A stretch of DNA of 62,412 nucleotides, filler included, from Kipferlia bialata (lineage: Eukaryota): the NCBI GenBank assembly GCA_003568945.1. It is 2 parts of 2 records of this genome, joined end to end, with 100 filler letters (N's around TTAATTAATTAA, not from the genome) between each part and the next. Parts side by side here need not be neighbours in the genome. Positions count along the whole stretch, not along the records: positions 31,266 to 62,412 come from BDIP01000114.1; 1 more part is not named here. The stretch is one strand, 5' to 3'. The notes beneath the pieces are model-generated. The model did not search any database and had not been told where the DNA came from. It was given only the letters and a program-made list of their open reading frames with translations. Of the stretch, positions 3,001 to 62,412 are shown piece by piece. Positions within the stretch are counted from its first letter, which is position 1; each line of letters starts with the position of its first letter. Both the position numbers and the translations under genes were made by a program.

Positions 3001-4106
3001 ACAAGAGAAAATGAACTGATTCATCACACACCTACACTGCGTACTGCTGTACAGGCCCGGCAGACTGCTGAATGTACCAATTGGACAGGGGGTGTCAAGG
3101 TAGTTACCAGTGCCAGTGGGACAGTAGTAACCTAGGAGGTTAGGATAGACAGAGAGAGTATTGGTGAAGTAGTAGTGCATACCTGCTGGGCACTGGGTAG
3201 GTGTCTCCACACCCTCTGTTCCACAGTAGTACCCTGCCGTACAATCATTGCATACATAGGACCCCTCAGCACTGTACTCAGCAACAGAGCACAGGGTGGG
3301 GTTGATGGTGCCGGCCTCACAGTAGGAACCACCTATCGGTGAGTTTAGAATGAAGGTACATATAGTATTAGTAAATAATATATATATATAGATATATACA
3401 TACCTGGGCATGGCCCGTAGTATCCATCGACAGTGGTCTCAGGTCTGCTACTGGGGGAGCCTAGGGTGCAGAAGTAGCCTGCCTCGCAGTCGCCCTCGGG
3501 AGCAGTCAGGCCTGGAGGGTAAGTACATATAGAGGTAAATGAATAGATATACATGTACCACTAACTGCGATACCCACCTGTCCTAGAGCAGTACTGCCCT
3601 GCCTCACAGAGGGTGCACTCACCCTCGGCCTGGAGACCAAGGAGGGAACTGTAGGATCCTAAGGTTAAGATGAGTATCTAACAACTACAAGAAGAAACAT
3701 ACCCATAAATAGACGTGAGTGACAGAAGAGAGAGAGAGTACCTGCTGGGCATGGGATGGCCACGGCGGCTCCCTCGGGACAGTATGACCCAGCGGGGCAC
3801 TGCTGGGAAGGTGAGTCAGAGACCAACAAGGATATACCACAAACTTATATATATATGTGTGTGTATTTGCGAATACATACCTCTGTATCAGCCTCTGTGC
3901 TCCCACCCTCACAGATGTACCCAGCGGCACAGAGACCAGTGGCCTCGGAAAGTCCTAATGTCAGTATATATATCAGGATAGAAATCTACACGATTGCAAC
4001 ACACCTGCTGTAGCACAGTATGATCCAGCTGGGCACGTGTCACACTCTGTGACATAGGCTAGACCGGTGGATGTACCAAGGGTGCCTAGAGGTAAGAATT
4101 GTAAGT

Positions 4107-4149
<43 letters not shown>

Positions 4150-5272
4150 AAGGGAGACTCACCGATGGGGCATGGGTTCTCTGTGGACCTGGATGATCCA
4201 GCTGGACAGTAGTAGCCTAGGGGGCACTCGACACTGGAGGACATGCCTATGGTGAGTGAGGTATATAAATTTGTATATATACATATTGTACAGAGAGAGA
4301 GGACGAGAGAATGGTCGAGAGAGAAAGATAAGGTACCTGTCTCATCGCAGTAGTACCCCTCTGGGCATGCAGAACAGGAGGTCTTCTGGGACCTGAGGTG
4401 AGCATACAGAGAACTCTACACGATACTAGGTAGTATTCCTACGCGGTTACCTTGGCTGGTATGTGCCCTCAGCACAGGGCTCGGGCTCTGATGTACCAGC
4501 CTCGCAATAGTGACCGGCAGGGCACACATAACTGAAGGTCAGATATCATAATTCTTTCACTATAGAGAATGGCTCTTGTGTGAAGATACTCATAAGAGCG
4601 CAACCGAGAGGACGAGACTGTTTGTACAAAGCGTACCCATATGCATTGGCCCCATCTACTAGCTGTGGAGTGGCAGAGTACTGAGTACATACAAATTTAT
4701 AAATATACGTACCCGTAAACATTGGCCCCATCCACCAGCTGTGGGGTGGCTGAGGATGAGCCTCCGGTGCAGTAGTAGCCAGCAGCACAGTCGCCTGGGG
4801 TCAGATACACATATTTACAAACACAAGTAAATGAAAATATGAAAATATGAGATACTGTATCGGATTTCCCACATAGAGTGAAGGAGAGAGAGGAATGTGT
4901 GTATGAGTATATTTACCTGCCACTGCCGATAGACCCGACAGGTCACAGTATGACCCAGCTGAGCACTCCACACAGTCAGTAACGGCCATGCCCCCAGTGG
5001 TGGACTTGTAGGTGCCTGGGGTCAGTACATCGCGAGGAGTTAGTACATCGTGTAGAGACACAGTGTATTACAACAACTACCACACTTGCAGTTACCTAAG
5101 AGAATGAAAGATGCAAATGATTACATTGGTATTGGGGAATAGTACCTGATGGGCATGCCGTAGGTACACTGGTGCCGGCTGGACAGTAGTATCCAGCAGG
5201 GCACTCCTAAGTGTGAGATACTGATACCACTGCAAGGTACATGATATATACGTGTATATATGCGTATATGCG

Positions 5273-5305
<33 letters not shown>

Positions 5306-8096: not shown

Positions 8097-8127
<31 letters not shown>

Positions 8128-11100
8128 ATGGCGTCACTATAATATACCTGTGCTAGGGACGTAGTACCCCCCTGGGGCAGGGATGGGCTGGGATGTACCG
8201 GTGCAGTAGTATCCCACTGGACAGATGTCACCTGGAGATAAGCCATACATGTAAATACACAACCATATAATACTACAATAGACACATATATACGACTGAC
8301 CTCCGTCTCCACCGGTTGGCGTAGCTGTTGTGGATGCTCCATCACAGTAGTAACCAGGGTCGCACTCTCCAGTGTGGGTCAGCTGGGCCTCGGCCTCGCA
8401 GTAGTAGCCCTGATAGTAAGAAAGGATCACTGATCTCCATATCAAACAGGTATTGCAATATATACATATGATAGTAATATACCTTTGGACAGTCGACGCA
8501 ACCAGTGGAGGATGTGAGACCGGTACTGCTGTAGTATGTACCGGCAGGGCATGGGAACTCATCAGCAGCACTGGTACCGGCTGGGAATGAGAGGGTGCAA
8601 CAAGTACATACACTAAAGGAGTACTGGAGGGATGCGGATATACATATATATATACATATGTATACCTGCACAGTAGTGTCCAGCGGCACAGACGTTCCCA
8701 ATGTATGTGGTGGATCCCGCGGGGCAGTAGTAGCCAGGGGGGCAAGTCAGGCACTGCAAATTAGAAACATCACTATATGAAAGACATTTGAGATATAGAA
8801 ATGTATATACGTGTATATACCTCAGCCTGACCGACTGTGGGGTTGTATGACCCTCCGTCACATGCCACCTCCCCGGTACTACCCTCAGGACACTGCATGC
8901 CAACACCACACCTGTCACCTGGAGTGAGATACCAATAAAGGTGCATATATAGCTAGTGAAAGAAGAGGGAGACATGCTTACATAAAGAACTGCTCGGCCT
9001 GGTTGAAAAGGGATATATTAGCATACCTGTTGTTCCATCGGTAGGCGAGCCAGTGGTGGCACCACCCAGACAGTAGTAGCCTCCAGTGCAGTCAGGGCCA
9101 ACGGCAGTCATCCCTGAGGTGTCGCAGTAGTGTCCAGCGTCACAAGAGGTACACTGCGACTCCATCTGGGCACCTGTGGTGGCACGGTAAGTGCCAATAG
9201 GGCAGAGTGTGTGGGTAGCAGAGCCTGCAAGACAGTATGAACCCTTGGGACATACATAGGCAACGGGATCGGCCTGGGACTGTCCAGCTGGACAGTAGTA
9301 ACCAATGGCGCAGTCGCCAGTCACAGCAGAGTTACCGGTACCGCTGCAGTAACTACCTGCAGTACAGGGAGTGCAGTCGTCGACTGACTCGAGGCCAGTA
9401 CTGCTGGAGAATGTACCAGCAGGGCACAGGTACTCCTCACTGCCCTCTGTTCCAGCAGGGCAGTAGCTACCAGCAGGACATATCACAGGGTCCTCGGTAC
9501 CTTCAGTGCAGTAGTACCCAGCGGGACAGGTGTCGCAGTCAGACTGCCCTGCCTCACCCTGGTACTCACCCGCGGGACACTGGCTCTGGTCACTAACACC
9601 AGCCTCACAGTAGTACCCGGCCTCACACTTGTAGGCGGGTGGATTGGCCTGGATCTGACCGGCTGGGCAGTAGTATCCTGCCTGGCAAGCGCCGCTCACA
9701 GTTGAGCGACCAGTACCAGAGCAGTAGTACCCCTCGGTACAGGCCAGACAAACGATATCGGACTCCCCACTGGGGTTGGGGTTGAGGTAACCCTCTCCAC
9801 ATAGTGTGACAGTGTCGGTACCAGTCTCACAGTACCCACCACTTGGGCAGGGCTCGCCGGTCACTCCACCGTCATCGGGTGAATCCGTAGTGGAACCACC
9901 GTAACAGATGTACCCGGCAAGACAATCATCCAGAGTATCTGGGTCATAGAGACCGGTAGTAGGGCAGTACTTGCCAGCAGGGCAAGTGGTAGCAGTGCTA
10001 GCACCAGCAGGACAGTATGAACCTGCAGGACAGATGTTACCACCCTGTGTGTCGTCATCGAGAGGGGTAGACACAGTAGCAGCCAGAGTGCAATAGTATC
10101 CCTGGGTACACACGTCTGTGGGTGTCAAACATGCAGAGCCCTCACAGTATTTGCCAGGGGGACAGTCGATACAGTGCGCCAAGGAGTCATTGCCAGTGGT
10201 AGTGTAGTATGTACCAGCAGGGCAGGCGTTCTCGGTGGCAGTAGAAGACCCCTCGGGACAGTAGTGCCCGGGGTCGCACTTGCTGCCGACGTACGTGGTG
10301 GATCCAGTGACGCAGTAGTACCCAGCTGGACATGTGATACACTCACTCTGACCAGTAGAGGGCTGATACTCACCAGGCACACACTCGACATGGTCTTCAA
10401 ACCCAGCCTCACAGAAGCTACCGGCAGGACACTCGTCTCCAGTGGTACCGTCTGTGGGAGTGCTTGTAGTAGCGCTGCCGAGACAGTAATACCCAGCTGC
10501 ACAGTCGGGTCCAACGGCAGTCATACCGGCAGTGTCACAATAGTGTCCAGCATCGCATGCAGTACACTGGGACTCCATCTGGGCACCTGTGGTGGCACGA
10601 TAGGTACCAATTGGACAGAGAGTAGGAGTATCTGAGCCAGCAAGACAGTAGGACCCAGCAGGGCACTCGTAGGCCACAGGGTCGGCCTGGGATTGCCCGG
10701 CAGGACAGTAGTATCCAGCGGCACAGTCTCCAGAGACAACGGAGGCACCTCCACTGCAGTACTTACCAGCGGTACAGGGAGTGCAATCATCAACTGACTC
10801 AAGACCAGTACTGCTGGAAAAGGTACCAGCAGGGCAAAGATTTTCAGCACTCGACTCAGTACCAGCAGGACAGTAGCTACCCGCAGGGCAGATAACTGGA
10901 TCCTCCACTCCCTCTGTACAGTAGTATCCAGCGGGACAGGTGTCGCAATCAGACTGTCCGGCCTCACCCTGGTAAGTCCCAGCGGGGCACTTGCTCTGCA
11001 CACTTACACCAGCCTCGCAGTAGTACCCAGCATCACACCTGTATGCAGGAGGGTTGGCCTGGATCTGACCGGCTGGGCAGTAGTATCCCGCCTGGCACGC

Positions 11101-14100
11101 GCCACTCACCGAAGAACGTCCAGTACCAGAGCAGTAGAATCCTTCAGTACAGGCCAGACAGACGGCAATGGACTCGCCACTGGGATTGGGGTTGTAGTAA
11201 CCCTCTCCACAAAGCACAACGGTATCAGTGCCAGCCTCACAGTATCCACCACTTGGGCAGGGCTCGCCTGTCACTCCACCATCATCTGGAGAGTCTGTAG
11301 TAGCACCACCATAACAGATGTACCCGGCTAGGCAAGTGTCAAGGGTATCGGGATCATAGAGACCAGTAGTAGGACAGTACTTGCCAGCAGGGCAAGTAGT
11401 AGCAACACTAGCCCCAGCTGGACAATAGGAGCCGGCTGGACAGATGTTTCCACCCTGAGTGTCGTCATCGAGAGGGGTGGCGACAGTAGCAGCAAGTGTA
11501 CAGTAGTAACCCTGATCGCAGTTATCGTTGAGAGACTCACGTCCAGTACCCTCGCAGTACTTGCCAGGGGGACAGTCGATACAGCCGTCTAGTGACTCGT
11601 TGCCGGTGGTGGAGTAGTAGGTACCAGCAGGGCAGGCGTTCTCGGTAGCAGTGGCGGATCCGGCCGGACAGTAGTGACCGGGGTCGCACTTGCTACCGAC
11701 GTAGGTTGTGGAACCTGCCAGGCAGTAGTATCCCTTTGGACACTTGGTGCATGCACTCTGGCCAGTGGCGGACTGGTAGTAGCCAGGTAGGCACGGCACG
11801 TGGTCCTCACACCCAGCCTCGCAGGCACTACCGGCTGGACACTCGTCTCCAGTGACACCATCGGTAGGTGTGCCGGTGGTGGCGCTACCTAGACAGTAGT
11901 AGCCAGCCCCACACTCGGGTCCCACGGCAGTCATACCGGCAGTGTCACAGTAGTGTCCAGCATCGCATGCAGTACACTGCGACTCCATCTGGGCACCTGT
12001 GGTGGCACGGTAGGTACCAATGGGACACAGCGTAGGTGTAGCTGATCCGGCAAGACAGTAGGACCCAGCAGGGCACTCGTAGGCCGCAGGGTCCGCCTCG
12101 GACTGTCCAGCGGGACAGTAGTATCCAGCGGCACAATCGCCTGTCACGGCTGAGTTGCCGGTGCCACTGCAGTAACTGCCAGCGGTACAGGGAGTGCAGC
12201 TGCCTAGCACCTCGAGGCCTGTGGTGCTGGAGAAGGTACCGGCAGGGCACTGGTTCTCAGTGGCACTCTCGGTACCAGCAGGGCAGTAGCTACCAGCAGG
12301 GCATATGACAGGGTCCTCGGTACCCTCGACGCAGTAGTAGCCAGCAGGACACGTGTCGCAGTCAGACTGACCAGTCTCGCTCTGGTACTTGCCAGCCGGG
12401 CACATGCTCTGTACACTCACCCCTGCCTCACAGTAGTAGCCAGCATCACACTCGTATGCTGGTGGGTTGGCCTGGATCTGGCCGGCAGGGCAGTAGTATC
12501 CTGCCTGGCACGCCCCACTCACAGTCGAGCGACCAGTGCCAGAGCAATAGAACCCTTCAGTACAATCAACACAAGAGCCCTCGCCAGTTCCACCTATAAT
12601 GAGAACGCATCTCTGGAGGTCTAAGAGTAAATTAATACAAAACAATACAGGTACATAACACTTACCAGCGTTGGGGTTGAGGGTTCCCTCGGGGCAGAGC
12701 ACGACAGAGTTGGTGCCTGCCTCGCAGTATGCACCGGCAGGACACTGCTGAAGGATAAGAAACGTTATGACAAGTATAAGAGTAGATGGACCACCTCAGA
12801 GACACCAAGTGATAACTAAACGAGTAGATGTTACATCCATACCTCTCCGAGTGACCCATCTGTGGGGTTGGACACTATGGCCCCACCGTAGCAGATGTAC
12901 CCAGCGTCACAGTCAGGTAGGGTGTCGGGATCATACAGACCTGTGGATCCACAGTACTTGCCTTGGGATCAGTGAATACATATACACACATAGAGAGAGG
13001 GGGGGGGGGGAGATCGTGTATGGTAAGTACCTGCTGGGCAGAGGATGTGTGTCTCTGTCCCTGCCGGACAGTATGAACCCTCGGGACAAATTCCACCACC
13101 TGAGTGAGACAAAACATCCAACACAACAATGTGAAGATATACAAACATGCAACACTCACCTGCGGCTTCGTTAGGGGGGTCGGGCCTGGTAGCGCTACCA
13201 CTGCAGTAGTACCCCTGAGTACAGGTACCAGCATAGCTAGTCTGCTGGGTCCCTAGACAGTACTTCCCTAGGGGTAAGACATATAAGCTGAGAATAGAAC
13301 GGAGAGTAAAACAGTATATATACTATAACTCATAAAGAGAGAGAGAGAGAGAGAGGTACCTGCAGGGCATGCCAGACAGTCTTCTTCGGCAGTGAGACCA
13401 GAGGTGCTGGAGTAGGTACCCTCTGGACACTCATACTGGTCACTGGAGACAGTGCCCTCGGGACAGTAGTAGCCTAAGGGGTAAGAAAGAGAAATATATA
13501 TATACACAGAGAGATATATATGCAGAGTATATATGTCCTTATAGTAGTAGTAGCCTAGGTGACAATGATAGTAGGATACCTGGTGGGCATATCTTGTCAC
13601 TGAAGGAGTCTGACCCCTCTGGACAGTAGAACCCGACCACACAGGTCTCGCACCTGTCCTGGCCCTCGGATGCCTAAGAGTCAGATAGATATACTACACG
13701 ATACATCCCACTAGCGTGTAAGACTCCGAGAGCCCTTACCTGGTATGTGCCGGCCAGACACAGCGTGTGTGTCTCTGACCCTGCCTCACACATACTGCCA
13801 GCTGGGCAGATATCACCTGGGGGTAAGGGAAGAGACATTTGTATAAGTTCATCGACTCAACTCCCTGACAGAGAGAGTGTGGGATGGGCAAAATTGGAGA
13901 TAGAATAGAGAACCATACCTGTTACGCCGTCTGTGGGTGTGGATGTGGTGGCACCACCCATGCAGTAGTAGCCTGCAGCACACTCATCACCTGGGTGTTA
14001 TTACAATAGATAATGTGGTATGTATGCAGTACTCAGAAGTAGACTGAGAAGAAGGTGTCAGAGTGTCCAATATAGTGCACTTGTTGGCTTCACCCACCTA

Positions 14101-14331
14101 GTGCGTCCATCCCGGTCTCATCACAGTAGTACTTGGCATCACAGGACTAAGGGGTCAGAAGAGAGTCAAACAAGATAAATAGAGAATATATAATCCGCCA
14201 AACGTGTCAAGACTATGCCCCCCTTCGAGGGTAACACATACATACCTGACACTCTCCCAGTGCAATAGCCCCAGTGGAAGTGAGGTATGTGCCCTGGCGG
14301 TAAGAAGAGAGACCGCAACGCACACAGAGAA

Positions 14332-14374
<43 letters not shown>

Positions 14375-14496
14375 CTGAGGAAGGAAGAGAGAAAGAGGAA
14401 TACCTTAGGACACTGCACATAGCTCTCTGTCCCCGCTGGACAGTAGGACCCAGCCGGACAGATACCACCGACAGAGGAGGTGTTGTCAACATGACC
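1..14496 (-). CDS. Giant multi-exon cysteine-rich repeat protein (GCC2/GCC3, ephrin-receptor-like CPAGYYC repeats); partial at both ends
   Basis: Dozens of short GT-AG exons encoding C-P-x-G-[YHST]-Y-C repeats, plus one 3567-bp exon (9027-12593). The 5' end is lost at the poly-G/N gap and the 3' end runs off the window. Confidence 0.9.
9027..12593 (-). repeat. About 2.5 tandem copies of a ~470-codon super-repeat inside one intronless exon
   Basis: CTEG[FY]YCSGTGRS.VSGACQAGYYCPAGQIQANPPAY recurs at ~12554, ~11141 and ~9731 (periods 1413 and 1410 bp). Confidence 0.9.
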
Positions 14497-14569
14497 TGAG
14501 ATAAGAATCAATTGATAGAAAACTCTCAAGAGAATCAAGAATTTAAAGAATGAAAAATCAAGATCATGA

Positions 14570-14570
14570 T

Positions 14571-14604
<34 letters not shown>

Positions 14605-14814
14605 TCCACGCCCCCNNNNNNNNNNNNNNNNNNNNNNNNNNNNNNNNNNNNNNNNNNNNNNNNNNNNNNNNNNNNNNNNNNNNNNNNNNNNNNNNNNNNN
14701 NNNNNNNNNNNNNNNNNNNNNNNNNNNNNNNNNNNNNNNNNNNNNNNNNNNNNNNNNNNNNNNNNNNNNNNNNNNNNNNNNNNNNNNNNNNNNNNNNNNN
14801 NNNNNNNNNNNNTT

Positions 14815-14853
<39 letters not shown>
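14570..14853. other. Assembly gap (N run) flanked by poly-G and poly-C
   Basis: About 200 N between a G tract and a C tract; the genes on both sides lack 5' ends. Confidence 0.95.
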
Positions 14854-14856
<3 letters not shown>

Positions 14857-14868
14857 CCTTCACCCCAG

Positions 14869-22752: not shown

Positions 22753-23546
22753 ACTTGGGATCCGAGTCTCGCCTTCGCACCACCCTGAGGACAGAGGTTC
22801 ACAGGGCACTTAGTCAGGACGTGACTGTGATCATTGACGCCTTGAACTATCTCAAGGTTGGACACTATCCCTCTGTGATTCATCTCTCCCTTCTTACCTC
22901 AGAGCTTCCGGTATGAGCTCTTCTGTCTCTCTCGCGATGTCCCCACCCCGTATCTCCACGTGCGGTGTGAGGTCACGAGGGAGGAGGCCCTGGCCCGCAA
23001 TGCAGTCTCGGGTCTCTACACAGAGGAGCAGATATTCCGGCTGTGTGCGTGCTACGAGCCCCCCCTGGCCAAGTCGTCATGGGAGCTCCCCTGCTTTCCA
23101 CTGGGTGCCTCTGACCCGACCCCTGTCTCTGACATCCTGGCCATCTGTAAAGGGTCCAAGGCAGTGCGGTCCTCTGCCTCCAGGAGACTACCTCTGGGCT
23201 CCAACATGGTGGGCATAGGCCTCATCACAGCTGTGACGGGGGATGTGGTGGCTGCCCTGGTGGAGGCATTGGCGGTGCTCAACGCAGGTGGGTGTGTATA
23301 TGGTATATACATTTGATGTTGTGTGTCTGTGTATGAGCGTATCGACGCCCCAGTCCCTCTGACCCCCCAGGCGACAGTGTGGGTGTGGGCTATGGCGTCA
23401 CGTGGCTGGTCCCCCCCGGACTATCCGTCAACTCCCTCCAGTCCCTCAGACAGGAGTTCCTCCTTGTGGCTAGGAGCAGGGCAGATGTGGGTGCCACAGA
23501 CGTGGCAAGGGCATTCGTCAGCTACCTCACACAGCGGTGCAGATGA
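22753..23546 (+). CDS. KTI12: KTI12 (Elongator-associated kinase-like protein), lacking its N-terminal P-loop
   Basis: Spliced product: LRTEVHRALSQDVTVIIDALNYLKSFRYELFCLSR...YEPPLAKSSWELPCF...LQSLRQEFL...FVSYL, typical Kti12 motifs. Confidence 0.85.
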
Positions 23547-24189
23547 GCAGTGCGTCGGTAGAGAGGTTGCAATCATACATCTTGACGTGGGTTGATTCTA
23601 CCGGATTCATTGATATGCCCGTCTCAGTTGGCCTAACAGGGCCTGTGCCTTACCTACCGTGTCCACCTACTGGGCCTATACGTGTGAGGCCTCGCCATTG
23701 GTGTCAGGTTGAGACTCCAGTACTGTCTCCTTCCCTCAGTGGACAGGAGTGAGGATATGGCGTTCCTCCTTCGTTCAATGCAACTAGCCATTGTCTCGTC
23801 TGCATGAGTGTTACTCATGAGAGGGTCCCAGTCTGTATGGATACATGCTGCTTAATAGTTCAGACTGTCATGCCGCTTTGCTGTATCGTTCTGTGGGGAA
23901 CCTCGGTCACAGTGTGATGCTCCACAGGTTGGTTGTGTAGTCGACAGCTAGTGTGTCTGTTTGGACAGATACTTGTGACTCACGGTGTTTGGAGTTATCG
24001 AGGCTTGAGAGGGCCCTCTATCTAATAGAATCAGGAATATGTATTGTGGTCTGAAGTGAGTAAGATCAGATGAGCCAACAGCTGAGATTGGAATTGGAAT
24101 TGAGGGTACAGAACAAGCAAAAAATCTGGAATGTCTGGGAGTCACCTGACAGACTGATCTCTCCACCCACCTCTGTTCACTGTTCGACC

Positions 24190-25359
24190 ATGACAAGCCT
24201 GCAGAGCAGCGTGGACAGGCTGAAGACCCGGGCGAAGGAGCTGGCCCCTGTTGTTGGCAAGAGCGGTCTGTCTGTGGAGGTCAACTCAGTGCTTGACCAC
24301 CTGCAGTCCAACACATCGGAGCAGGACACGCTCACGGCAGTGGCCTTTCTGGAGGAGTACCTGGACACTCTGCAGAGGTGGGTAGTGAGGGGGGACTTGG
24401 GATAGGACACGACAGTGTTAATATTGAGGACTATATGATTAGTGTATTCTCTTCAGTGTGTATGTTACTCTTCGCCACCCCCCTGTCTTCACCCACATTA
24501 GGGAGTCTGAGCTGAGGTCTGCTCTCCAGACAGCCCAGACCGATGCCGAGGAGCTAGCTCTTGCCCTGGACCGGTCCACCCTGGAGTCTGGGTACATCTA
24601 CCTGCCTGACACCCACAACTCTGTGGTGGACGGGGTGATGCCAGCCGGGGGGAGGGGCTGGGGGCTGCCTGTGGCCAAGGACGAGAACCCTCTCAAGGAC
24701 TGCGCCATCACTAGGTGGGGTGGCATAGCTACCGTCACCATTAACCATATTCATTCTCACACCGACTCCCATTCTCTTCTCTTCTCCCTGATCCCCCCCC
24801 TCACCCCAGGGTAGTTGTGGATGAGGCTGTGCAGCACAAGGGCAGGTTCCACCCATTCCACTCATACAGGTGGGGATGGAAGATGTATTGGTATTGGTCT
24901 TGGAATCACTCTATACACTGTCATTTATCTGGGTATTATTAACCCTAGGGTGCTGACTATTACCACCAACGGCCGCATTTACATGGTAAGGAGGCGGTTT
25001 AACGACCTCAAGGCCCTGCACAAGGGCCTCTCTACCCGGGCAGACCCCCCTCCCTTCCCTTCTGTCAGGTTGGTATCAGTATGTATATATACCAGTGTCC
25101 TCTCTTCCCTTCCTACCTCTCTGATACATAGGCACTGGGCTCTTGGAGGAGGAAAGCCAGAGTTCATTGCAGTGCGTGTCCGCGAGATGTCTCGGTATCT
25201 GGAGAGGGTCTGCGGCAGCCAGCTCTTTGCAGAGTCGGAGGTGGGTTGGCATATATATACACATATACACACCCTGTCCTCTTTACTGTCTGATATCAGG
25301 AGCTGCATGCCTTCTTCACAGATGGGGCAGAGTTCAGACCCCAGGCACAGGGGTACTGA
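24190..25359 (+). CDS. PX-domain (sorting nexin-like) protein, 6 exons
   Basis: VRRRFNDLKALHKGL...PPPFPS...EFIAVRVREMSRYLERV...ELHAFF is a PX signature; in-frame GT-AG junctions. Confidence 0.8.
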
Positions 25360-26686
25360 GCCGGGTGTGGGGGGTGAGGCTAAGCCGGGGGCCTCGTGTA
25401 GCTGTACCAATGAATAATAGATCATAATAGTGTGAGGGACTGAAATGGTGCAACTGCTTCAATGGACCGACACATCCCTGCAAACGACATTTATGACGGA
25501 AAGACAGCCTCCAGGCAACAAACCTGGGGCAACGACAGATGTAGTACAGCATCTGAAACACTAACTAAAGAAGTGTACTATAGGAACTATTACAACTGTG
25601 GAACGCACTTCGAGTAAACTTGTCTTCACCTGCCCTTCTTCTCCTTGTCGCCAAAGCAAGCAGCCATGGTCCCATCAAGATACTCCTCTCTCTCCATAAC
25701 ACCATCACTCTGAATCACATAGCTCTTGCCAGGCTTTGCACTGACAAAGAACTGGTCTTCACACACACACATTTCAATCTGGGCCCTAGTAGGCAGAGGA
25801 CGAATACTCGGGTAGTACACTCGTGTGCTGGAGCCCTTGTATCCTGGTATGAAAAGAAACCCTCAATGAAGTTATGAGTGTAGCAGGACTAGTCACCTGG
25901 AGCAGCTTCCTCAACGACAAACTCCTCAGTGGGAGCAGCGGAAAACAGCTGGAACGGGGTACCGAACGGGTCACCCGCGGAGCTGCTCTCTTCGTCGGAA
26001 CAACCTTCCATGATACTCAATATCTTCTTCTGACAGAAGAGTCCCCCAGCAGTCCCCTAGTCAACCTACTCTGAAGAGGACCCTTTTGTTAATATCACCG
26101 AATCGGATTTTTTGTCGGAAAGTTCCGAATTTCCAGTGGAAATTTTCCACTGGAGTCCACATCGTGGTATCGAGGTGGGGATAAGCAGCTCTTTTGTCGC
26201 TGTTTTATTAGCGAAGGATGGTTACTTTGTAGCATATCGCCTTTGTCTATGCTGACAGCGCATAATTGAGTTTTTGGTGGCCAATCAGGGGGCTTTTAGC
26301 ATCTCTGGTTTATGGTTGTTCTATTCGAACTAATCTGGCTACTGACTTCTTATATGCTCTGTTTATTAATGGTATAGCGGTGTTCCCGTGACGATATCGA
26401 CTCTTTCCCGAGGCATCTTGCCCAAGAGTGAATATTCCAATTGGTAGGGCTATCCTGACTCTTCTCGTCTGGCTCTGTCGGAGAGAAGGATGATTGGTTG
26501 CTTTTACCGCTATCTGAGGGACACAGTTATTCTGGTCTGTTTATTAAGCTTAATGCTTGACAGTATTAGTTCTGGCGGGCTGAGCGTTTGTGAGGAGATA
26601 CCTTCATGCTACCCTGAGAGCCCATAGGGTATCTCTCGGTACTATCACAAGCCCCTCCATCACTTAGCTATTCCAACGATACTGGC

Positions 26687-27599
26687 ATGCCTCAGTACTT
26701 TCGGAGGATCTCCCACATAGAGAGGCTCATATACAAGGTCCCCAAGGTATGGTGGTTATTCTTGATCAATTATCTGTGGCATTGTTCCCATTCACGGCAG
26801 GACCTTGTGTATGTTACCACTCTCCACATTCGTCAGGTCAACGTGGGGCCCAGTGGCATCACAGTGGAGATCCCGGTTGGGTTCTGTCTGTCCAACGAAG
26901 GTACACGACGTGTGCTATATTGTTACTCGCGCACACTTTCCGTTTCTCTCTCTTTCTGTCTCTCTCTCTCTCTCTCTCTCCCCCCCCCACTCTGCCCCTA
27001 ACCACCAAGCTGCCGATGTCACCAACCCTAACCTCTTGTGCCGCATCCCCCCTTGGTTGGTGCATGAGTTCCTCTTCCGCACTCACAGGAACAAGCTGCG
27101 TGGGAGCAAGGTTACGAGGGAGACAGCCAACAGCCTACTCACTGGGACAGAGTGGGGGGTGAATCCAGAGCTGCAGGTGAGCACTCTCTCTCCCTCTCTC
27201 TCTCCTCCTCCTCTCTCCATCAACCACTGCCCTGCCTCCCTGACCCCAGTCCATGGAGCGCTTTGTGGCCCTTGCCAACACTGCCACAGTCATACCTAGC
27301 CTGGTGGCAGTGCCCAAGGCAGCAGTCAGGTGGGAGGCACATACATACACATTCTACTTTGGATACTTGGGTGGAGAGTTGCTGTGTATGTATTCATGAT
27401 ACATAGAATTCTATATAATATCCTATATGTATATATATATATATCTGACCCCAGGTTCAGCTCTGGGGAGAAGGCCCCTGTGCAGGAGAGAGTGGGCCAG
27501 GTCTTCATCGGCCTGGGGGTGATAGGGGGCGGCATACTCGCTGGGATCCTCACCAACCTCTTCATTGAGAGTGAGGGCGTCAACTTCCCAAGGCTATAA
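26687..27599 (+). CDS. Hypothetical protein with a C-terminal TM helix and weak DUF1353-like motifs
   Basis: Five exons splice in frame: ...VEIPVGFCLSNEAADV...PWLVHEFLFRTH...VTRETANSLL...VFIGLGVIGGGILAGILTNLF. Confidence 0.6.
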
Positions 27600-27925
27600 A
27601 TCAAAGGGGTATATGAGTGGTATTGTTGTATTTCATGTTACAACGATGTATAGGTATGGGATGTGGTTTTGCACTCATTTGGGAATAGAATTACTCTGCT
27701 ACACAATGTGTATTGAAGAAGTCATCCCGGTATCAGTACACTGTATTGTATATATAATCCACTGCAATGTGTCTGTGAAGCATCTATTCAACGTTCACAA
27801 AGTATCTATCTAGTCGAGCACCATGCCCTCTCCACTGCCTGGGAGGGAGAATGCACTGGCATTGCCTGGAGGTCAGGGACAGAGAATAGAATATGGATAC
27901 AGTAGAGAGAGTGTTGTATGCACTG

Positions 27926-29236
27926 TCAAGACACTGCCCCCATACCTAGGACTGTGAGGGATGTGGCCACTGAGCTCTCCATCAGCCTCTCGGCCAGCTC
28001 CGACAGGTGCCTCTTGGGGTCCAGCCTGCCCGTGTCTGGTACCTTGTCCTCGGTGTCCAGGGAGGACTGCTCCTTGAGCCGGGAGGCAAACTGCGACATG
28101 AGGTCTGCTGCCTTGTCGAGGGAGGCATCGGTGTCTGCCTCTGCCACACCCACCCCTGCCCCTAGGGTGGCACCACCAACCCTGTGGAGAATGGCGTCCT
28201 CCACCTCGTTGGGCCTGATCTCGGTCTCCAGGCAGTAGTACTGCTGGCCCAGCCCATGCACAATGGTCTGGATGGGGGGTTGCCTCAGGTACCCCAGGTT
28301 GGAGGTGGTCTTGCGCTTGGCGTCTGGGTCCCCGGCCAGCATGCCAGCTGGGCCATCCCCCAACAGCCGGAATGCCTCCAGCACCACATTGCCCCTGACA
28401 CTCTGCACAGGGTCCACAACAACGGCAACGGCCCTGGGGGGTGAAGGGAAGGAAGGGAGAGAAAGGGGGAGAGAAAGAGGGGGAGAGAAAGAGGTGGGGG
28501 GTAGAACACAAATGACTGGAAGCATGTTACGCTGACTACATCAATGGAAGATAAAGAACACAACTATACAACAAACCCAAACCACCCTGCTAACCACGCT
28601 GCCTACCTGTCGTTGAGCTGCTCAAACGAGGCCTGTGTCCTCTGATCTGTGCCACTCAGCCAGCACCCAAAGCCAGGGTGGGAGTGGTACCAGCCAACGG
28701 AGGGCTCGGTGGTGCCCACCCGCTTCAGCAGGTCCATCATCTCAGCCTGGTACACCTCGTCCACAGCCTCGACAGAGGTGCCAGAGCCTGGGGGTGAGAC
28801 TGGGCAATAGAGAAGAAGGAAGAGAGGGCCATCTACGGATAGGAGTCCTCAGGGACAGAAGTGATTAACCAGGGATACATACATACACACAAATACGGCC
28901 AACAGCAATATGAATATGTACATCTAGAATAAGTAGAATAAGTAGAACTAGTAGTAGTGGAAGAGTAGAAAAGGAAAGGGCGGCCCACACAAACCAACCA
29001 CATGTCAACTGACCTGACTGAGGCATTGCGAACACGTCAGTGATGTGTACTGTGTACTGGTCAACATATCTTCCCAGGACCAGCCCCATAACCTCCATGG
29101 GCACCCCACTCTTACCGTGGGCCAGCATCTTGAGCAGGGCCAGTGGCGAGATGACCACAGTCTCAGATGTGTCGCTCACAGTCTTCTTCTTCCCAGCTCC
29201 GCCCATCTGCTGCTGCAGCAGGGCATTAATGTCCAT
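27926..29236 (-). CDS. RPN11: 26S proteasome deubiquitinase subunit Rpn11/PSMD14
   Basis: [28 protein letters not shown] motif [28 protein letters not shown]; three exons. Confidence 0.97.
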
Positions 29237-29518
29237 TTTGAACCTGTGTGAGAGGAAGAAAAGGACGGTTGGCAGGTGTAAGGAGAGAATACTTCAAAGG
29301 ATCGAGGCCAATGTACTCTCACCCATCCAACAGACACTGAAAAGCAACCAAATATACCAGATCTAGTAAACTTACACACCTGAGCCACTAGAGAGACTCT
29401 GGTTCCGTGTTACTCACGAGAATGTGTAGGAAAGGCAGTAGTGTACAGCAGCCAACAATTGTATTAGGGGTTAGCTCTCAGACTGCAAAGCCTCTCTTGC
29501 CAGTGACTGCCACTGTCA

Positions 29519-31165: not shown

Positions 31166-31265
31166 NNNNNNNNNNNNNNNNNNNNNNNNNNNNNNNNNNN
31201 NNNNNNNNNTTAATTAATTAANNNNNNNNNNNNNNNNNNNNNNNNNNNNNNNNNNNNNNNNNNNN
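31166..31265. other. Artificial scaffold linker N...TTAATTAATTAA...N
   Basis: A 12-mer with stops in all six frames, centred in an N run (31210-31221). Confidence 0.9.
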
Positions 31266-32045: not shown

Positions 32046-32667
32046 ACTCTGAGTCAGAGTCTCTGACACAGTGTACATGACAGCCTGTCATTGACAGGAC
32101 ATCTCGGAAAGCAAAGAGTCGATTACTTCCAACAATTTCTCAGTGTAAGGAATGCCAAAGGTACGAGTGGTGTAGGTACACTAGTGAAAGGCGTTGTCAA
32201 AGCCAAAATGGTGTTGCCAATGAAGTGTCGATAGTATCGACTCGATACTCTATGCCAATTAGAAGCTCTCTCAAGGCTATTAGTAATAGTAGTATTGTCC
32301 CTACAATTACCTCATCGATCATGTACACATGTTCACAAACTGCAAGTCATTGTGCGCTTGACCGAAAGTACATGTACGAAAGAACTGTGGCTCAGACCAC
32401 CACAGGACCCTGATGACTCACGACATCCTACAGACCACAGTTACTGGGATTGACAGGTTCAAGACAATATATATGACAAGAACGGAAGACCTTAGGAATC
32501 TTGCTGGGACCAGAATCCAGTAGACACTATCTACCCTACTACGAAACTATGATAACCAAACCCAACTTAGCATTCCAATGTGACTATGATATTAGATTAC
32601 GATATTAGATCGTATGACGTCAGGTGATCACTCAAGTTATACGGGACCTCCACTGGAGGTCCTCCAG
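32046..32667. mobile_element. Four putative hairpin-type transposon excision footprints
   Basis: Exact 22-mers at 32046-32067, 32077-32098, 32227-32248 and 32646-32667. Confidence 0.6.
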
Positions 32668-33087
32668 TCATCTTGGAAGCTTAGTGGAGGCTGCTCAAAT
32701 ATCGTACATGAACAGTATTGTCACTATATACATTCTCTTTACAGAAGGGGCAAAGGTTGAACGTGCTAGTACCCCGGAAGCTTCTATAATAGACTATTAT
32801 TAATAGTCACTTGGGACGCTACACGGACACAACCTTCCTTGAGTTGAAGAACACACTCAGCTCTCACCATTGCTAATGGGAGGGGTACCAAGTCCTATTG
32901 AGTGTGGGAATACTCATAAGACTCCTTGCATAACGATGTTAGTGAGCATTGGTTGCTCTAGGTGAAGTTCGCCATGGAGTCGTATATCTCGTGACGAAAG
33001 ACTCGCCGAATCGACATCACAATATGAATCCATTTTTGACTTTGGGTTCTGTGTCGACAAGACCCTCATGTAGATGTGTTTCCCCTA

Positions 33088-40573: not shown

Positions 40574-43365
40574 ATGGCTAAGAAGTCAAAGGATTCACCA
40601 GCTCCTGATTATAGGTATATAGCTTCTTCAGAGTAAGGATATAGATGACATGACACTGTGAGTATATTTTTAGAGATTCATGTCTTCTTTTAGATTTCTG
40701 CTGTCTCTATGTTTCTTTACATATATCTAGGAGATTAAAACAGCTAGTACTGCTTGTGATAGTGTTTCCTCTATAGTTTTAGCACTCAACTAGTAGGATA
40801 TGCGGGTCTTCCATGTATCCAAATATACCATTCTATTTTTGTACTTGTACTCTTGCCTTCAGATACTCTGAAGATGCCATAAAGGAAGTGCTTGTGACCT
40901 CTATATCAGTGATGAGCTTACTGTCTTATTCTCAGGCACTTTGACGGTCCCGTCAAGAAGCGCAGATGCCGCGACTGCTGGTTCCTGCCATTCTTCGTTG
41001 CCTTCTGGCTCTTCATTGGATACCTGATCTATCTGAAGTATGACGCATCCCTCGGGCTCTCCGCCGATCAGTTCATCGAGGTGCAGCGTGCCTACCTCCC
41101 CATCGACAAGATGGGCAGGTTCTGTGGCCGTGGGGATGACTGGAACACCGCCAAGCACCTCACCCCTAACTCCCAAGGTATATATACATTGTCATGAGTG
41201 TAGGGGTAATGGTAATATATATATATATATAATTATTATGTATTATACATGTGTGTGTATATATCATGAACTGTATCTCACTCCAGGCATCATCAACGAC
41301 CTAGCCGTCACCATGTTCACTACTGCCGTGGGTACCACCAAGGCCAACTACCTCCAGTACTTCATGAGGCTGCCAGATGCTGCATTCGAGGATGTTTCCT
41401 ACACGAACGCCAGCTACCTGACTTCCGATGACCCCATTCTGTCCTATGACCACACTAATCGCGACTACCTGTGGTACTCTCTGTCTCCCTCCCTGGACGA
41501 CATCACCTCTGTGCTCGACAACTGTATCTGTGTGGAGGACTGTACCGCAATCTATGGCCTGGTCGACATCGACGAGGTGTTTGGAGATGACGGAGAGGTG
41601 GACGACGACAGCGTTGTGTACCCCTATGTCTGCTCCAGCGATCTGATGGACCTTGCCACCAGCTACCAGACTGACAACCCCAGCATCGTGGTCGACGCCA
41701 ACGGCTACTACGACATCACGGACTACACCCTTCTCAAGAGCAGGATGTCCACCGCCATGAAGTCCCGTCACTCCGAGATCACCGACGCCGAGGTCGACGG
41801 TCTCTTCGAGCAGGAGTGCTTCACCGTCTGGATCGACACTGCCTCCGAGAGCATCTCCAAGCGTTGCCTCCCCCCCTCCTCCGCCCTGTCCTCTGCCAGT
41901 GAGTACGCCTCCGACGTCGTGACCTCCTTCCTCGAGGGCATTGTGGGCCAGTCCGTGGGCACCATGGCCATCTCCTCTGTCATGGATGGCTGGCAGTTCA
42001 TGCTCGGCGGCGTCGTTGTGTCCGTCCTCCTCGGATTCCTCTGGCTCCTCCTCCTCAGGCTCTTCTCCGGCCTCATTGTGTGGATCACCATCATCGGCCT
42101 CTTCGGCTGCCTCTGTGCCGCCACCTACTACACAGGATACAACGTACGTGATACTGATACAACGTACGGGAGAGGCTCTGTCTGCTGTCTATGTTTATTG
42201 TTTCTCTTTTCAGCCCCCCCACCCCCCTCACCCCCAGGGATACACTGAGAAGACATACTGTGAGGACAACACATGCACCGACTCTCGTTCCGAGTCTGCC
42301 AACCGTATGTTCTACGTCGGATGTGGTCTTGCCGCCATCACCATCATCTACCTCCTCCTCGTGTTCTGCATGTGCTCCAGGATCAACCTCGCCATCGCCA
42401 TCCTCAAGGTGTCCTCCACCGCCATCCGCAACATGTTCCGCCTTGTGTTCCTGCCCATCGGCTTTGTCTTCTGGGGTCTGGTCCTTGGATGCATCGCCAT
42501 GTTCGCTGCTGTCGTTGCCTACACAGGCGCTGAGTTCCACTGTGCCGAGGGCCACCGTAGCTGGGAGCCCACCACCGTTGAGTACGTGTATGCCGCCGTC
42601 GGCCTCCTTGGCTTCTGGTGGGGCCTCTACTTTGTGCTGGGCCTGTGCCAGACCACCATTGCCATGTGTGTCGCCACCTGGTACTTCACCAGGGACAGGA
42701 ACCACCTTCCCAAGCGCCTCGTGACCGCCTCTCTCTTCAAGGTGCTTCTGTTCCACTCCATGTCCGTTGCCCTTGGCTCCTTCTTCATCGCCCTGCTCAC
42801 CTGGGTCCGCATCATGTTCCAGTTCGTCAAGAACCAGGTCAAGAACAAGCACGCCGACAAGGGCTTTGTCAAGTACCTCCTGGCCTGTGTCGACTGCTGC
42901 CTCTGGTGCTTCGAGAAGATCCTCAAGTACATCAACAAGAACGTGTACATCGCCATCTCCATCCAGGGCAAGTCCTACTGCAAGTCTGCCTCCGAGGCTA
43001 TCCCCCTCCTGCTCGAGAACGGGGCCAGGATGGTGGCTCTCAACGTCATCGGGGACTCCCTGCTCTTTGCCGGCAAGATGTTCATCTCCCTCGCCTCTGG
43101 CATTGTGGTGGGTCTGGCCATCTACCAGTGGGGTGACGACGGTATCTCCGCATACTGGCTGCTTCCCTCCATCATCGTGACCCTCTTTGCCTTTGTGTTT
43201 GCCTCTCTGCTCATGTCTGTGGCCGAGCTCGTCATCGACTCCATCTTCTACTCATTCCTCATCGACGACAAGCTCCACGCCGGAAGCCCCTCCTCCCACT
43301 ACTTTGCCCCCAGGGAGCTGCACTCCTTCATCAAGGAGAGTGACCCCGAGAGCGGATGCTGCTAA
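40574..43365 (+). CDS. Choline transporter-like protein (CTL/SLC44), 4 exons
   Basis: YRHFDGPVKKRRCRD, RINLAIAILK, FHSMSVALGSF, CCLWCFEKILKYINKNVYI, GKSYCKSA; multiple TM helices. Confidence 0.95.
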
Positions 43366-43803
43366 GGGACCAGATGGTCATCAGTTAAAATAGAAAACAT
43401 TTGTACTGTCGTGTTCGTTAGTCAGTGAGCAAGAGTGTACTAAGGGCTAGTGTTTGGTGACGCGATATGGTATGTATATACATATATATATGATATTTAG
43501 GATCGAGTCTAGATAACTCCCAACACCTCTATGTGAAACTGAGTGGTTCTCTCTATTGGGTGTCCTATCGCTGTCCAGATTAATACCAGATGTATAGCGC
43601 AAGCGACCTTTGTTACAAATATGCTCTTGCTTTCGACTGGAAGAGACTTCTGAAAGGAAAGAGACCTCTTAAAACGCAAGAGGTGGCAGGAGGATAGGGT
43701 GATAGGAGGACTCGGCGTTCTCAGAGTCAAAGGCCCGGCAGACATAATCATAATCAGTGTGTCAGTGTGTCAGGGACAATGGAGAGTGGATACATGGATG
43801 TGC

Positions 43804-44214
43804 CTAGTAGCCAAGCCTCTCCTTCACGGCGTCTGCAAAGAGAGGCGCCCTGATGGGCTGGTCTGGGTTGACCAGGGGGGACTTCAACACATAGTCTGCG
43901 TAGAGCTGGTAGACATCACCCAGCATGGCCTGCAGGTCAGCCTTGTGGTCGAGACTGGCCAGCAGCAGCATCTTGAGGCCGGTGGGGGTCTCGAGACAGG
44001 CCGCCTTCGTCTTGGCTGTGCTGAACTCCCTGATGCCACTGGTGGTCTCCCTGCCTCTGGGGGCCACCTCGTTAGACAGGGCAAACAGGCCGTGGAAGGT
44101 GGACAGCAATACTAGGTAGTCATTGGCACTGATCCCAGTCTCACGGGGGACAAACTCCTGACTGTACACAAGACCTCCAGCCTTGGAAATGATAAAGAGA
44201 GCGTGTACACCCAT
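43804..44214 (-). CDS. TRAPPC4: TRAPP subunit 4 (Trs23/synbindin), intronless
   Basis: IISKAGGLVY, NDYLVLLSTFHGL, ETPTGLK, YQLYADYVLKSP. Confidence 0.93.
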   Translation of the reverse strand: MGVHALFIISKAGGLVYSQEFVPRETGISANDYLVLLSTFHGLFALSNEVAPRGRETTSGIREFSTAKTKAACLETPTGLKMLLLASLDHKADLQAMLGDVYQLYADYVLKSPLVNPDQPIRAPLFADAVKERLGY

Positions 44215-44255: not shown

Positions 44256-44277
44256 GGACCAGTCTGGTCCGACCAGA
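44256..44277. mobile_element. Putative excision footprint within a divergent promoter
   Basis: g-gaccag-t-ctggtc-c-gaccag-a. Confidence 0.6.
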
Positions 44278-46699: not shown

Positions 46700-46801
46700 G
46701 AGATATGTATATATATATATGATTAGAATCTGTGGCCCGCAATCAAAGGTCAAAGTTCCGGCTTTGTACATACACTATCACTACACTATCCCTACATATA
46801 C

Positions 46802-47491
46802 CTGGGAGAAGGATACGTCCACCAGAGGCTTGGGGATAGTGGTGTGGGTGACGTCCCAGGACAGAGCCACGCTGTCGAACACTGGCAGCCTGGTGTCCTC
46901 TCCGGAGTGGGACACAATGACCAGCACTCCAGCCTCACGCAGCACCCGGTGTGCCTCGCGGAGATACCTCTGGACGGCAGAGAGGTTGTCGAACCCACAG
47001 AGGAGGGTGTCGAGGAGAGCCTTGTCCACAATCACGTCAAAGGACTCGCTCTCAAAGTCAAGCAGGGTCACGTCCATGGTGAGGTACTGCATGGAGGGCC
47101 GGGCCTCCATCTCGGGGGCCATGATCTGGCGGCACAGGGGCACGTAGTCAAGGGCAACCACGTTCTCAAACCCATCGTCGTGCAGCTGGATGGGCAGACG
47201 GGAGGTGCCGCTGCCGGGGAGCAGCACACGCACAGACCCAGCGAGGTGGGGCTCAACAAGATGCCGGAAGTTCTCATAACGCACATAGAAGTCGAACATG
47301 CTCGGCCTCTGAGCATACCTGTGTCAGAACAGAAACACAGAAACATCCACTGAACATAGTATGGCTGTTAACAAAGTAATGGCGCAGAAGAGCCACAATA
47401 AGCAGAAACACAGGAGAGCGAGTCATACTCCATGAATGAGGTACCTGGCAGCCCAGTAGCTCTTCTCAGCGTAATTCTGACTATCGGTCAT
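46802..47491 (-). CDS. Class I SAM-dependent methyltransferase, EEF1AKMT4/METTL13-N-like
   Basis: YAEKSYWAARY, FDFY, VLLPGSGTSRL, MDVTLLDF, FDVIVDKALLDTLLCG, RVLREAG. Confidence 0.9.
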
Positions 47492-47630
47492 CTTTCTTTT
47501 GGGGTTCGACTGCTCTGAAATGATCTATGAGGGTGAGCAACTACTCAAACTGCCTAGACAGCGAGGCAGTATGGCAATTCGAAGTTAGCCAGTCCGATTT
47601 TTTGGTCGAGAAGGGTTTAGGAACTCGAGC

Positions 47631-47699
47631 TTGAGTCAACTTGACTCAGTCAAGCAGGCTGCTTGAAGCAGCTTGACAATTGAGTCAAGCAGCTTGACA
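47631..47699. mobile_element. Two overlapping putative footprints next to an unmodified copy of the site
   Basis: 47633-47654 and 47651-47672; pristine copy at 47680-47699. Confidence 0.65.
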
Positions 47700-47858
47700 G
47701 GGTAACTCTCACTTGAATTATTACCCGACCAGCCCTCAGAACAAATATTTCAACTCTTTATTCTATTTTCACACTCAATTAACGTACCACACTCCTGCTC
47801 AAAAGTCCACAGGAAGCGGTGAAACTCACACTATGTTGTACTACTACCCTGTAGGGGT

Positions 47859-49296
47859 TTACTGGTTCAGGTTGTCGAAGGTCTCGCTGATCTCGTCGTA
47901 CACGGCCTGGAACTCGGCCACGGCCATCTCCTCCGTCATGGAGACGTCGTTGGTGTCGACCTGGTTGAGGGTGGCAACCCTGTACAGAAGGTCACGGGTG
48001 GCGGCGCTGATGGCGTCGTAGGTGAGGCCCTTCTCCTTGCCCTGGGGTTAGTATGTGACACGACACATACACACTGATTGACTGGTAATCATCATTGCTT
48101 CTAATGCACACATACCTTGACAAGAGAGTCCTGGGCCCTGTTGTAGTAGTGGAGCATGTTCTTGAGGATCCACACAGTCTTGTAGAAGGGGCAGTATCTG
48201 TCGTGGGGGGTGAATCCGTTCTGCTGGAGCCATCCCTCCTTGATGATGGCGGCAATGGCAAGCTTGCACTTGTCAGACTCGGGCAGAGAGTCCTGGGGTC
48301 AGAGGTGTATTATATGAATCACTATATAATATATGTATATATATGCTACCTGTCCGACGAGCTGCACAATCTCCTGGAGCTCAACCTCATCCTGAAGAAT
48401 CTGCCTGCACTGGGACCTAGTCGTAAGCACAGACAGATACAGAGAGAGAGATCCCTTGAGAGAGTATGCAAGGTATATACCTGATGGGGAGGAAGTCGGC
48501 GTGGTTCTCCTCGTAGTATGGCTCCAGGGTGTTGGTGCATCTGGAGTAGGAGATGTGCCAGTCGATGGAGGGGAAGTGCTTGCGCCTGGCAAGCTCCTTG
48601 GACAGTCCCCAGAACACCTGGGGTGAGTATCAGGGTGATGAGTTGTGTCTGCAAGAGAGATAAAGATAGAGAGGGAGAGGGAGAGAGAGCGTACCTGCAC
48701 GATGGACAGGGTGGACACACACACAGTGTCAGAGAAGTCTCCTCCGGCAGGGGACACAGCTCCGACAATGGACACAGATCCGTGCCTAGAGGGGTGAGAG
48801 GAAGATAGGTAGGTGAGCTATTATGCCACACTATACAGCTACACACCTGTTGGGGGATCCCAGGCAGGACACACGGCCGGCTCTCTCGTAGAAGGAGGAG
48901 AGACGGGTTCCGAGGTAGGCAGGGTAGCCAGACTCACCGGGCATCTCAGCAAGACGTCCGGAAATCTCACGGAGGGCCTCAGCCCACCTGGGGGGTGAGA
49001 AAAAGATGATACAGAGAGAGAGAGAAGGAGAGGGGGGGAGGGGGGAGGGGGGGTTAAAGAATAGGAGTGTAGATATAGTATCTATATAGTGCATACCTGG
49101 ATGTGGAGTCAGCCATCATGGCCACGTTGAGGCCCATGTCTCTGAAGTACTCAGACAGGGTGATGCCGGTGTAGATGGAGGCCTCACGGGCAGCCACAGG
49201 CATGTTGGAGGTGTTGGCGACGAGGGTGGTACGCTTCATGATGGACTCCATCTTGCCGTTGTGCTCCATCTCGAGCTCGGGGAACTCGACAAGCAC
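47859..49296 (-). CDS. VMA1: V-type ATPase catalytic subunit A, 3' half only
   Basis: [62 protein letters not shown]; truncated at the G/C tract 49336-49392. Confidence 0.97.
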
Positions 49297-49636
49297 CTAG
49301 GGTAAGAGAGGGGGGTCACATGTAGAGTAAGAAGAGGGGGGGGGGGGGGGGGGGGGGGGGGGCACCCCCCCCCCCCCCCCCCCCCCCCCCCCACAAATCC
49401 AATTACCACCCTATGGATTCAGAGTGTGCAGACAATTCCAATAGTATGAGTTGGGTCTCTCTCCCTCTCTCGACCAAGTAGATCTACTCCTCTTTATATT
49501 CGTGTTTCCGCACCTTCCGTATTACTTCTATCATTTGTGCATATCCATTGTCAACCGATGGTTGAGTCCCCATCCCCCCCCTCCCCCCCCTCTCTCGGTA
49601 CATGTCTCTCTCTCATCCTCTCTCCCTTCCCCCCAG

Positions 49637-61376: not shown

Positions 61377-61701
61377 CTCAGAGACAGAGAGGTGTAAGCA
61401 TAACAGTATGTGACGTATAAGCTATTCAATAGATTCTATTGAATATCAGAGTAGATATGTTTGTTTCACTACGGATCAGACTCTTGTGCCAATTAAAGAG
61501 ACAGAAATAGATGGATGAGAATACTTAGTAATTGAATTATTTACATACTCATTGGCGATTAATACGAGAGAAGGTGACATAGATCTAATAATAATACTGG
61601 CCTACTCTCGCCAATTGGGTACCGGAGTACTGCAAGGCAGTGAAAGACAAGAATTTCTCCCCTAGTAATAGACTAGATGTCACCAACTCTCTCTACTCAT
61701 A

Positions 61702-62411
61702 GCCTATGAGTCATAGGTCCTATGGGTCATGCATTAATATTCTTCAGTATACAGTATGACTCACACTGTCTGCCAGACAGTGTCTGGACTCTAAACCCAA
61801 TAGTTTGACCGCCTCATGATGAGGCTCATCACATTTGTAAAGTCTATTGTATGTGAAGATAGTTGATAATACCCACTTGCAAATTGAAAGCCTCAGACTG
61901 AGGCCCTCAGTCCAACATATGGGCTTGCAGTGTGACGAATCCTCCTACATCTCCCCACTTGCACAGTCTGACAAAGACACAGTACTTCACTGAACAAATG
62001 AGTGATACCAATGATGTGCTAGGTCCTAGCCTAGGATTCCATCTTGTAGCGGATGCTTGCTACACTGAAGAAGGTCTCCCCCCATGTGTTGTTGTTGACC
62101 ACAACACTGTAATGGTAATGACAGAGAATAGCAGGTAAGACCTGTTGTTCGATGATACTTGTGACCTGAGATTAGCGCTCTGTTCTTACACATATCTTCT
62201 GTGACCATCTTGGTGCCACCAAGATGGTCGAACCCATGACCTCCCCTTGGTATGTGGAAAAAGAACGGCTGCGTTTACACTAACAACGGTTGAAACCAGC
62301 GGTGAAACTTACATTACCAGACGTCATTCCCAATATACCCATTGGATCCCATTTTCTTTCTCGGCAACGTCCCAATCTAAGTGGATTGGGAAGGTTGGGA
62401 AGTCTTCCCAA
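61702..62411. mobile_element. Cluster of exact and degenerate putative footprints
   Basis: Exact at 61766-61787 and 61890-61911; variants near 61702, 61811, 62018, 62203-62229 and 62395-62411. Confidence 0.6.
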
Positions 62412-62412
62412 T

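Follow-up and report, generated by a model that had tools for sequence, protein, structure and literature searches.

Kipferlia bialata is a free-living protist. The locus described here lies in a 62,412-nt stretch of its genome (the window), between the RNA contig ends of two minus-strand genes and hence on the promoter side of a methyltransferase gene. The placement upstream of the methyltransferase that had been proposed is thus borne out, the putative scars at the locus lying at least 77 bp upstream of the RNA contig end at 47554. The same contigs supply an extra upstream exon (47442-47554), so that the methyltransferase probably begins with the ATG at 47491 and not with that at 47299. The other gene encodes V-ATPase subunit A; one of its exons in the window is 97% identical to a K. 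bialata protein, with the next-best match at 90%, and outside intron interruptions that protein matches the exons of the window at 98%. The features of the locus are listed below, where A and B are two overlapping 22-mers and X is an 8-bp site.

46784..47554, minus strand: methyltransferase gene; RNA contigs splice 47315/47442 and extend to 47554
47628..47677, no strand: likely older scar with one mismatch (first base), whole only once A and B are removed
47631..47678, plus strand: left copy of a 20-bp duplication, lengthened twice by 14 bp
47633..47654, no strand: 22-mer A, putative recent scar; X1-7, reverse complement of X, X2-8, with X = GAGTCAAG
47651..47672, no strand: 22-mer B, putative recent scar of the same form, with 8-bp site CAAGCAGC; overlaps A by 4 bases
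47679..47679, plus strand: one base, extra or substituted, where the two copies meet
47680..47699, plus strand: right copy without A and B; has 19 of the 22 bases of the likely older scar
47746..49296, minus strand: partly visible gene for V-ATPase subunit A, with RNA contig ends at 47746-47767, some 50 bp beyond the right copy

Both 22-mers match this form exactly. When each was shortened by 14 bp in a scripted collapse, the left copy became a 20-mer identical to 47680-47699. The left copy carries two exact 14-base fold-back insertions that are absent from its twin; the duplication has a period of 21, with one extra base at 47679, and the longest direct repeat within 47601-47720 grows from 13 nt in the raw sequence to 20 nt after the collapse. 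The 22-mers at this locus are therefore exact 14-bp fold-back expansions of 8-bp sites with the unexpanded form alongside, as the original prediction had it. This situation is peculiar to A and B: a nearby copy reading across the restored site was found for none of the 10 other perfect 22-mers in the window (longest match 2-5 nt), and these accordingly have no unscarred single 8-mer state to be compared with. Tandem Repeats Finder (TRF) did not report the locus.

The tandem arrangement itself is supported by a DNA contig from run X1, which covers 46750-48450 with 0 differences. As run X1 is possibly the window's own source, this contig excludes an assembly slip yet gives support that is not independent. 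No second allele is listed there, and 46750-48450 showed no allele with an element in place, nor an empty or unscarred one; this is a single locus represented by contigs, which drop rare variants.

The original prediction also called for two events, and indeed no single insertion and excision covers both 22-mers. In a brute-force test that allowed duplications of 7-9 bp, tails of up to 45 nt and any hairpin opening, a single origin of the double scar left at least 17 nt unexplained. Derivation of the 21-bp duplication from one hairpin repair left at least 14 nt unexplained, and the duplication is an event separate from A and B.

The form seen at the locus recurs across the window. We scanned for it with core lengths of 5-12 and trims of 0-3 bases on each side. 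At a trim of one base on each side there were 12 perfect matches with an 8-bp core, two with a 7-bp core and none with cores of 9-12; other trims of 0-2 bases gave no match at cores of at least 8 bp, and the matches of core 9 and 10 obtained with larger trims are apparently identical 22-mers parsed anew. Perfect 22-mers appeared in none of 200 order-2 and none of 300 order-3 Markov resamples of the window. Variants were also in excess, with two 22-mers bearing one mismatch (0.01 expected), four bearing two (0.36 expected) and, with a 7-bp core, two perfect 19-mers, a form that 200 resamples yielded 4 times altogether. Besides A and B, the perfect 22-mers are the following.

26129..26150, no strand: perfect 22-mer
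32046..32807, no strand: five perfect 22-mers (32046, 32077, 32227, 32646, 32786)
44256..44277, no strand: perfect 22-mer, 42 bp upstream of the ATG of a sybindin-family gene (44214, minus strand)
61696..61911, no strand: three perfect 22-mers (61696, 61766, 61890) and a 7-bp-core 19-mer at 61812

A 22-mer with one mismatch lies at 31892, near the second of these groups, and further variants lie close to the last (61420, 62018 and 62203). The perfect 19-mers at 61812-61830 and 62018-62036 could reflect occasional 7-bp duplications or a second element, and three palindromes centred on a single base (62203-62229, 61423-61445 and 61712-61724, with arms of 13, 11 and 6 bp) have the look of one-sided or nested scars.

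The sites are strongly clustered, 10 of the 12 lying within 500 bp of another, which was reached in 0 of 20,000 random placements. None of the 12 overlaps coding sequence in 16 checked stretches with Pfam, RNA or homology support, a set that is not a full gene map. They were not set apart from background by proximity to intron-type microsatellites (5/12 against 60%). Position 2 of the core tends to be a pyrimidine and position 7 a purine (21 of 24 slots; p=1.4e-4 for a pattern picked post hoc), a strict T/A at these positions accounting for just 11 of 24 slots; the sites of both A and B are among the three exceptions to the position-2 preference. Metagenome contigs contained no close strain, and the three matches found, at 33-34% identity and 11 kb in total, held no such scars.

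Palindromes with arms of at least 7 bases point to the same geometry. Those centred on a single base number 41, against about 7 expected, whereas those with even centres show no clear excess (10 against about 8). V(D)J coding joints and Transib resemble the present sites in that hairpins are opened with P-nucleotides, but RAG-type hairpins lose no base and so give even-centred palindromes, and Transib duplicates 5 bp; we rejected a RAG/Transib joint on the centring of the palindromes. Palindrome pairs at spacings of 5 and 10 were also discarded, as they are mostly AT-rich repeats or by-products of the scars. By the definition of a footprint in PMC5873905, both sides of all 12 perfect 22-mers are palindromes centred on the complement of the element-adjacent base.

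Several other features of the window were recorded. Exact copies of TTTTKGTCG occur only at 26109, 31889 and 47600, each no more than 35 bp from a putative scar, and two of them lie just upstream of minus-strand starts (the RNA contig end at 47554 and an ATG at 31862). The motif is possibly a promoter element; at one mismatch it is not enriched across the window (7 against 6.2 expected). In the last 90 bp of the contig, 62327-62412 holds 5 of the 16 plus-strand copies of [TA]CCCA[AT]T in the window, together with inverted copies; these crowded copies could be subterminal repeats of a transposon end, perhaps that of the scarring element. A very long cysteine-rich repeat gene occupies about 500-14500 on the minus strand, with a stop-free stretch of 1280 aa (8956-12795), weak Ephrin_rec_like matches and internal repeats of about 1410 bp. 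Pfam identified ordinary genes at 22879-29293 and 41923-44214 (KTI12, PX domain, RPN11 (JAB), choline transporter and sybindin family). The N gaps at 31166-31265 and 14571-14858 are bordered by long C or G runs, one gap holding a 12-base AT spacer, and these, together with a G27/C28 inverted run at 49336-49392, are probably sequencing or scaffolding artefacts. A general repeat listing of the window consists mostly of microsatellites and coding repeats.

The geometry of the 8-bp cores matches that of hAT flank hairpins rejoined through the target duplication; the enzymes are those we infer, and the putative duplication is read from the form of the scars, not from the flanks of an element. The overlapping 22-mers are thus probably excision scars of a hAT-type DNA transposon. 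The element would first insert, duplicating the 8-bp site X. On excision, the transposase would cut one base into each flank and the ends would be sealed as hairpins, whose tips would then carry the complement of the element-adjacent base. Opening of each hairpin at least 8 nt from its tip would unfold a 3' tail on either side; the sequence would read X1-7 followed by the reverse complement of X on the left, and the reverse complement followed by X2-8 on the right. These tails could anneal via the reverse complement of X that both contain, an 8-nt microhomology guaranteed by the duplication; trimming and fill-in, for which Pol theta is the probable enzyme in a Ku-less cell, would then give a net gain of 14 bp. 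If they annealed via X2-7, an overlap of 6 nt, the site would be restored without a visible trace.

Much of this scheme agrees with published work. hAT transposases leave hairpins on the flanks and mostly duplicate 8 bp (PMC5499845, PMC2921059), and Ac/Ds footprints contain palindromes centred on the complement of the element-adjacent base, usually joined at microhomologies (PMC5873905). Within the window, a one-sided long tail with 13-bp arms (62203-62229) suggests that opening far from the tip does occur. In a simulation, the +14 joint offered the longest microhomology at 11 of the 12 sites, which largely follows from the assumptions of the model, and in 13 of 24 slots the predicted microhomology continues into the flanking base, a weak effect (permutation p=0.013). 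The element itself did not come to light: there were no transposase families in the 179 ORFs (107 + 72) scanned with Pfam, of the 564 ORFs of at least 55 aa in the window, and no convincing pair of terminal inverted repeats with a duplication among 22 candidates, which were mostly coding repeats or AT-rich matches.

Comparison with known elements brings out both likenesses and differences. The sites resemble those of Ac/Ds, as studied in plants, S. cerevisiae and C. albicans, in their P-nucleotide palindromes centred on the element-adjacent complement, hairpin intermediate, microhomology joining and 8-bp duplication (PMC5873905, PMC1978519, PMC2921059); a 7-bp duplication has also been described for Ac/Ds (PMC1978519). 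However, Ac/Ds footprints are varied and mostly short (28 types in 128 C. albicans clones, the longest P stretch being 3 nt), whereas here one full-length form predominates among the detectable scars, with an inverted target between two near-complete target copies, and has accumulated in the genome. This contrast may be overstated, since short footprints are undetectable here; with short footprints and precise excisions invisible in one sequence, the uniformity holds only among long scars. Hermes and TcBuster resemble the present sites in the 8-bp length and the proposed flank hairpins, and may do so in a bias at positions 2 and 7 and a preference for nucleosome-free promoter DNA (PMC10368747, PMC7534453, PMC3499496). 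The target pattern of Hermes is nTnnnnAn (PMC10368747), and its promoter preference is for nucleosome-free DNA (PMC7534453). The bias here is one of pyrimidine and purine rather than T and A, and the central TA of TcBuster is absent.

We consider it unlikely that the same repair route was fed by a MULE, or by some other hairpin-forming transposase with a mostly 8-bp duplication, rather than by a hAT element. Muta1 does leave hairpins on flanking DNA and can duplicate 8 bp (PMC5499845), and the two perfect 7-bp-core scars testify to some variation in length. Yet Muta1 also makes 9-bp duplications, which should then be common, and cores of 9 or 10 bp are absent; its excision in yeast is more than 90% precise in the same source, and the core bias in the window resembles the Hermes target pattern. 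In its lack of 9- and 10-bp cores the window does not fit a Muta1-type footprint.

Nor does an origin without any transposon, by a double fold-back of a host polymerase where open chromatin has broken (template switching or synthesis-dependent end joining), seem likely to us. Such a route would fit with the failure to find an element in the window, with PolQ being listed for K. bialata and with the templated 21-bp duplication at the same spot. In single-stranded form the DNA of the locus also has a strong fold (z -3.3), a possible source of fragility from the first scar onwards. Against this, free template switching would not be expected to invert a constant 8 nt with a single-base centre at either end, other core lengths and trims are essentially absent, and the palindromic character of the bias at positions 2 and 7 points to a dimeric enzyme picking its site.

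A further reading would leave the origin of the 22-mers unchanged but reverse the polarity of the locus: the segment would have been duplicated with its scars already in place, and slippage between 6-nt direct repeats would later have removed the two 14-mers from the right copy. Exact reversion of a 22-mer is conceivable because X2-7 occurs twice in it, 14 bp apart, round the hairpin. Two such exact reversions would be needed, both confined to a single copy, when the window still retains 12 perfect scars, and we regard this as very improbable. Finally, although the sites lie near gene starts, it is hardly credible that they represent an assembly artefact or a protein-binding element dispersed with a fixed sequence: the 12 cores all differ (best-strand identity 1-5 of 8 in 66/66 pairs), a search of the window allowing up to two mismatches finds the right copy's 14-mer just once, an Rfam search gave no match and one contig runs unchanged across the locus.

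Reading the 22-mers as hAT-type excision scars, we can propose a history for the locus. The right copy, which had been taken as ancestral, does keep the state that preceded A and B, but it is not pristine. After the collapse a third 22-mer starts at 47628, with one mismatch, in the first base, among 14 constrained bases, and before the collapse it can be traced by a pair of palindrome centres, at 47684 and 47691. As 19 of its 22 bases are present in the right copy, that copy is ancestral to A and B but probably itself a scar. The simplest order would be an old scar, a 21-bp tandem duplication of part of it, and then A and B, in either order, as two further cycles of insertion and excision 4 bp apart in the left copy. 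The history would thus probably comprise three transposon visits and one 21-bp duplication, by which some 8 bp of promoter-side DNA would have grown to about 71 bp. Local hopping is possible, as the duplication of a resident element A need not have been harmed by the insertion of element B next to it. The clustering of 10 of the 12 scars favours repeated targeting of open intergenic DNA, which would be sufficient.

The proposed repair may be set against the genes of the host. Metamonads are reported to lack Ku70-Ku80 and DNA-PKcs (PMC8516963). K. bialata is listed with PolQ, Mre11, Rad50, SNM1/PSO2, XPF and ERCC1, and without Ku70, Ku80, Artemis, CtIP, Lig3 and PARP (PMC8516963, Supplementary Data 2), this single source furnishing both lists. 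In yeast, the opening that Pso2 makes in a hairpin lies 2 nt from the tip (PMC3299998), not at least 8 nt from it, so that distal opening needs another route, for which an Mre11 nick and fold-back resynthesis are candidates. Loss of NHEJ would not be required, as palindromic arms of up to 20 nt occur in Ku-proficient S. cerevisiae (PMC5873905). It is a tentative idea, and one we hold to be rather doubtful, that this eukaryote, lacking Ku and Artemis, heals transposase hairpins mainly by distal opening and Pol theta joining via the inverted duplication.

The chemistry of hairpin excision is textbook hAT biology. What appears to be new is the full-length footprint as a genome-wide class: no account of such a 22-bp class was found in the literature searched, which left subscription papers mostly outside, and neither that literature nor the supplements searched reported hAT elements in Kipferlia. 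The available parts of PMC11787283, PMC4423477 and PMC5874029 (the last with its supplement) contain nothing on such scars. To this the locus adds an internal before-and-after pair in a host reported to be without NHEJ, and with it direct evidence within one genome for the polarity from 8-mer to 22-mer, which the other ten scars do not provide. If there is indeed one stereotyped repair route, every visible transposon visit would add 14 bp. At 12 per 62 kb, the genome of 51 Mb, which is probably diploid (PMC5874029), could then hold in the order of 10,000 scars. Past insertion sites could be mapped, and the target preference read, from one genome without finding the element, and hairpin resolution without classical end joining could be tested by comparing counts of scar types between Ku-positive and Ku-negative genomes. 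The scars would then constitute a record, readable from sequence, of past insertions and of NHEJ-free hairpin repair, a process that would be ever rebuilding promoter DNA.
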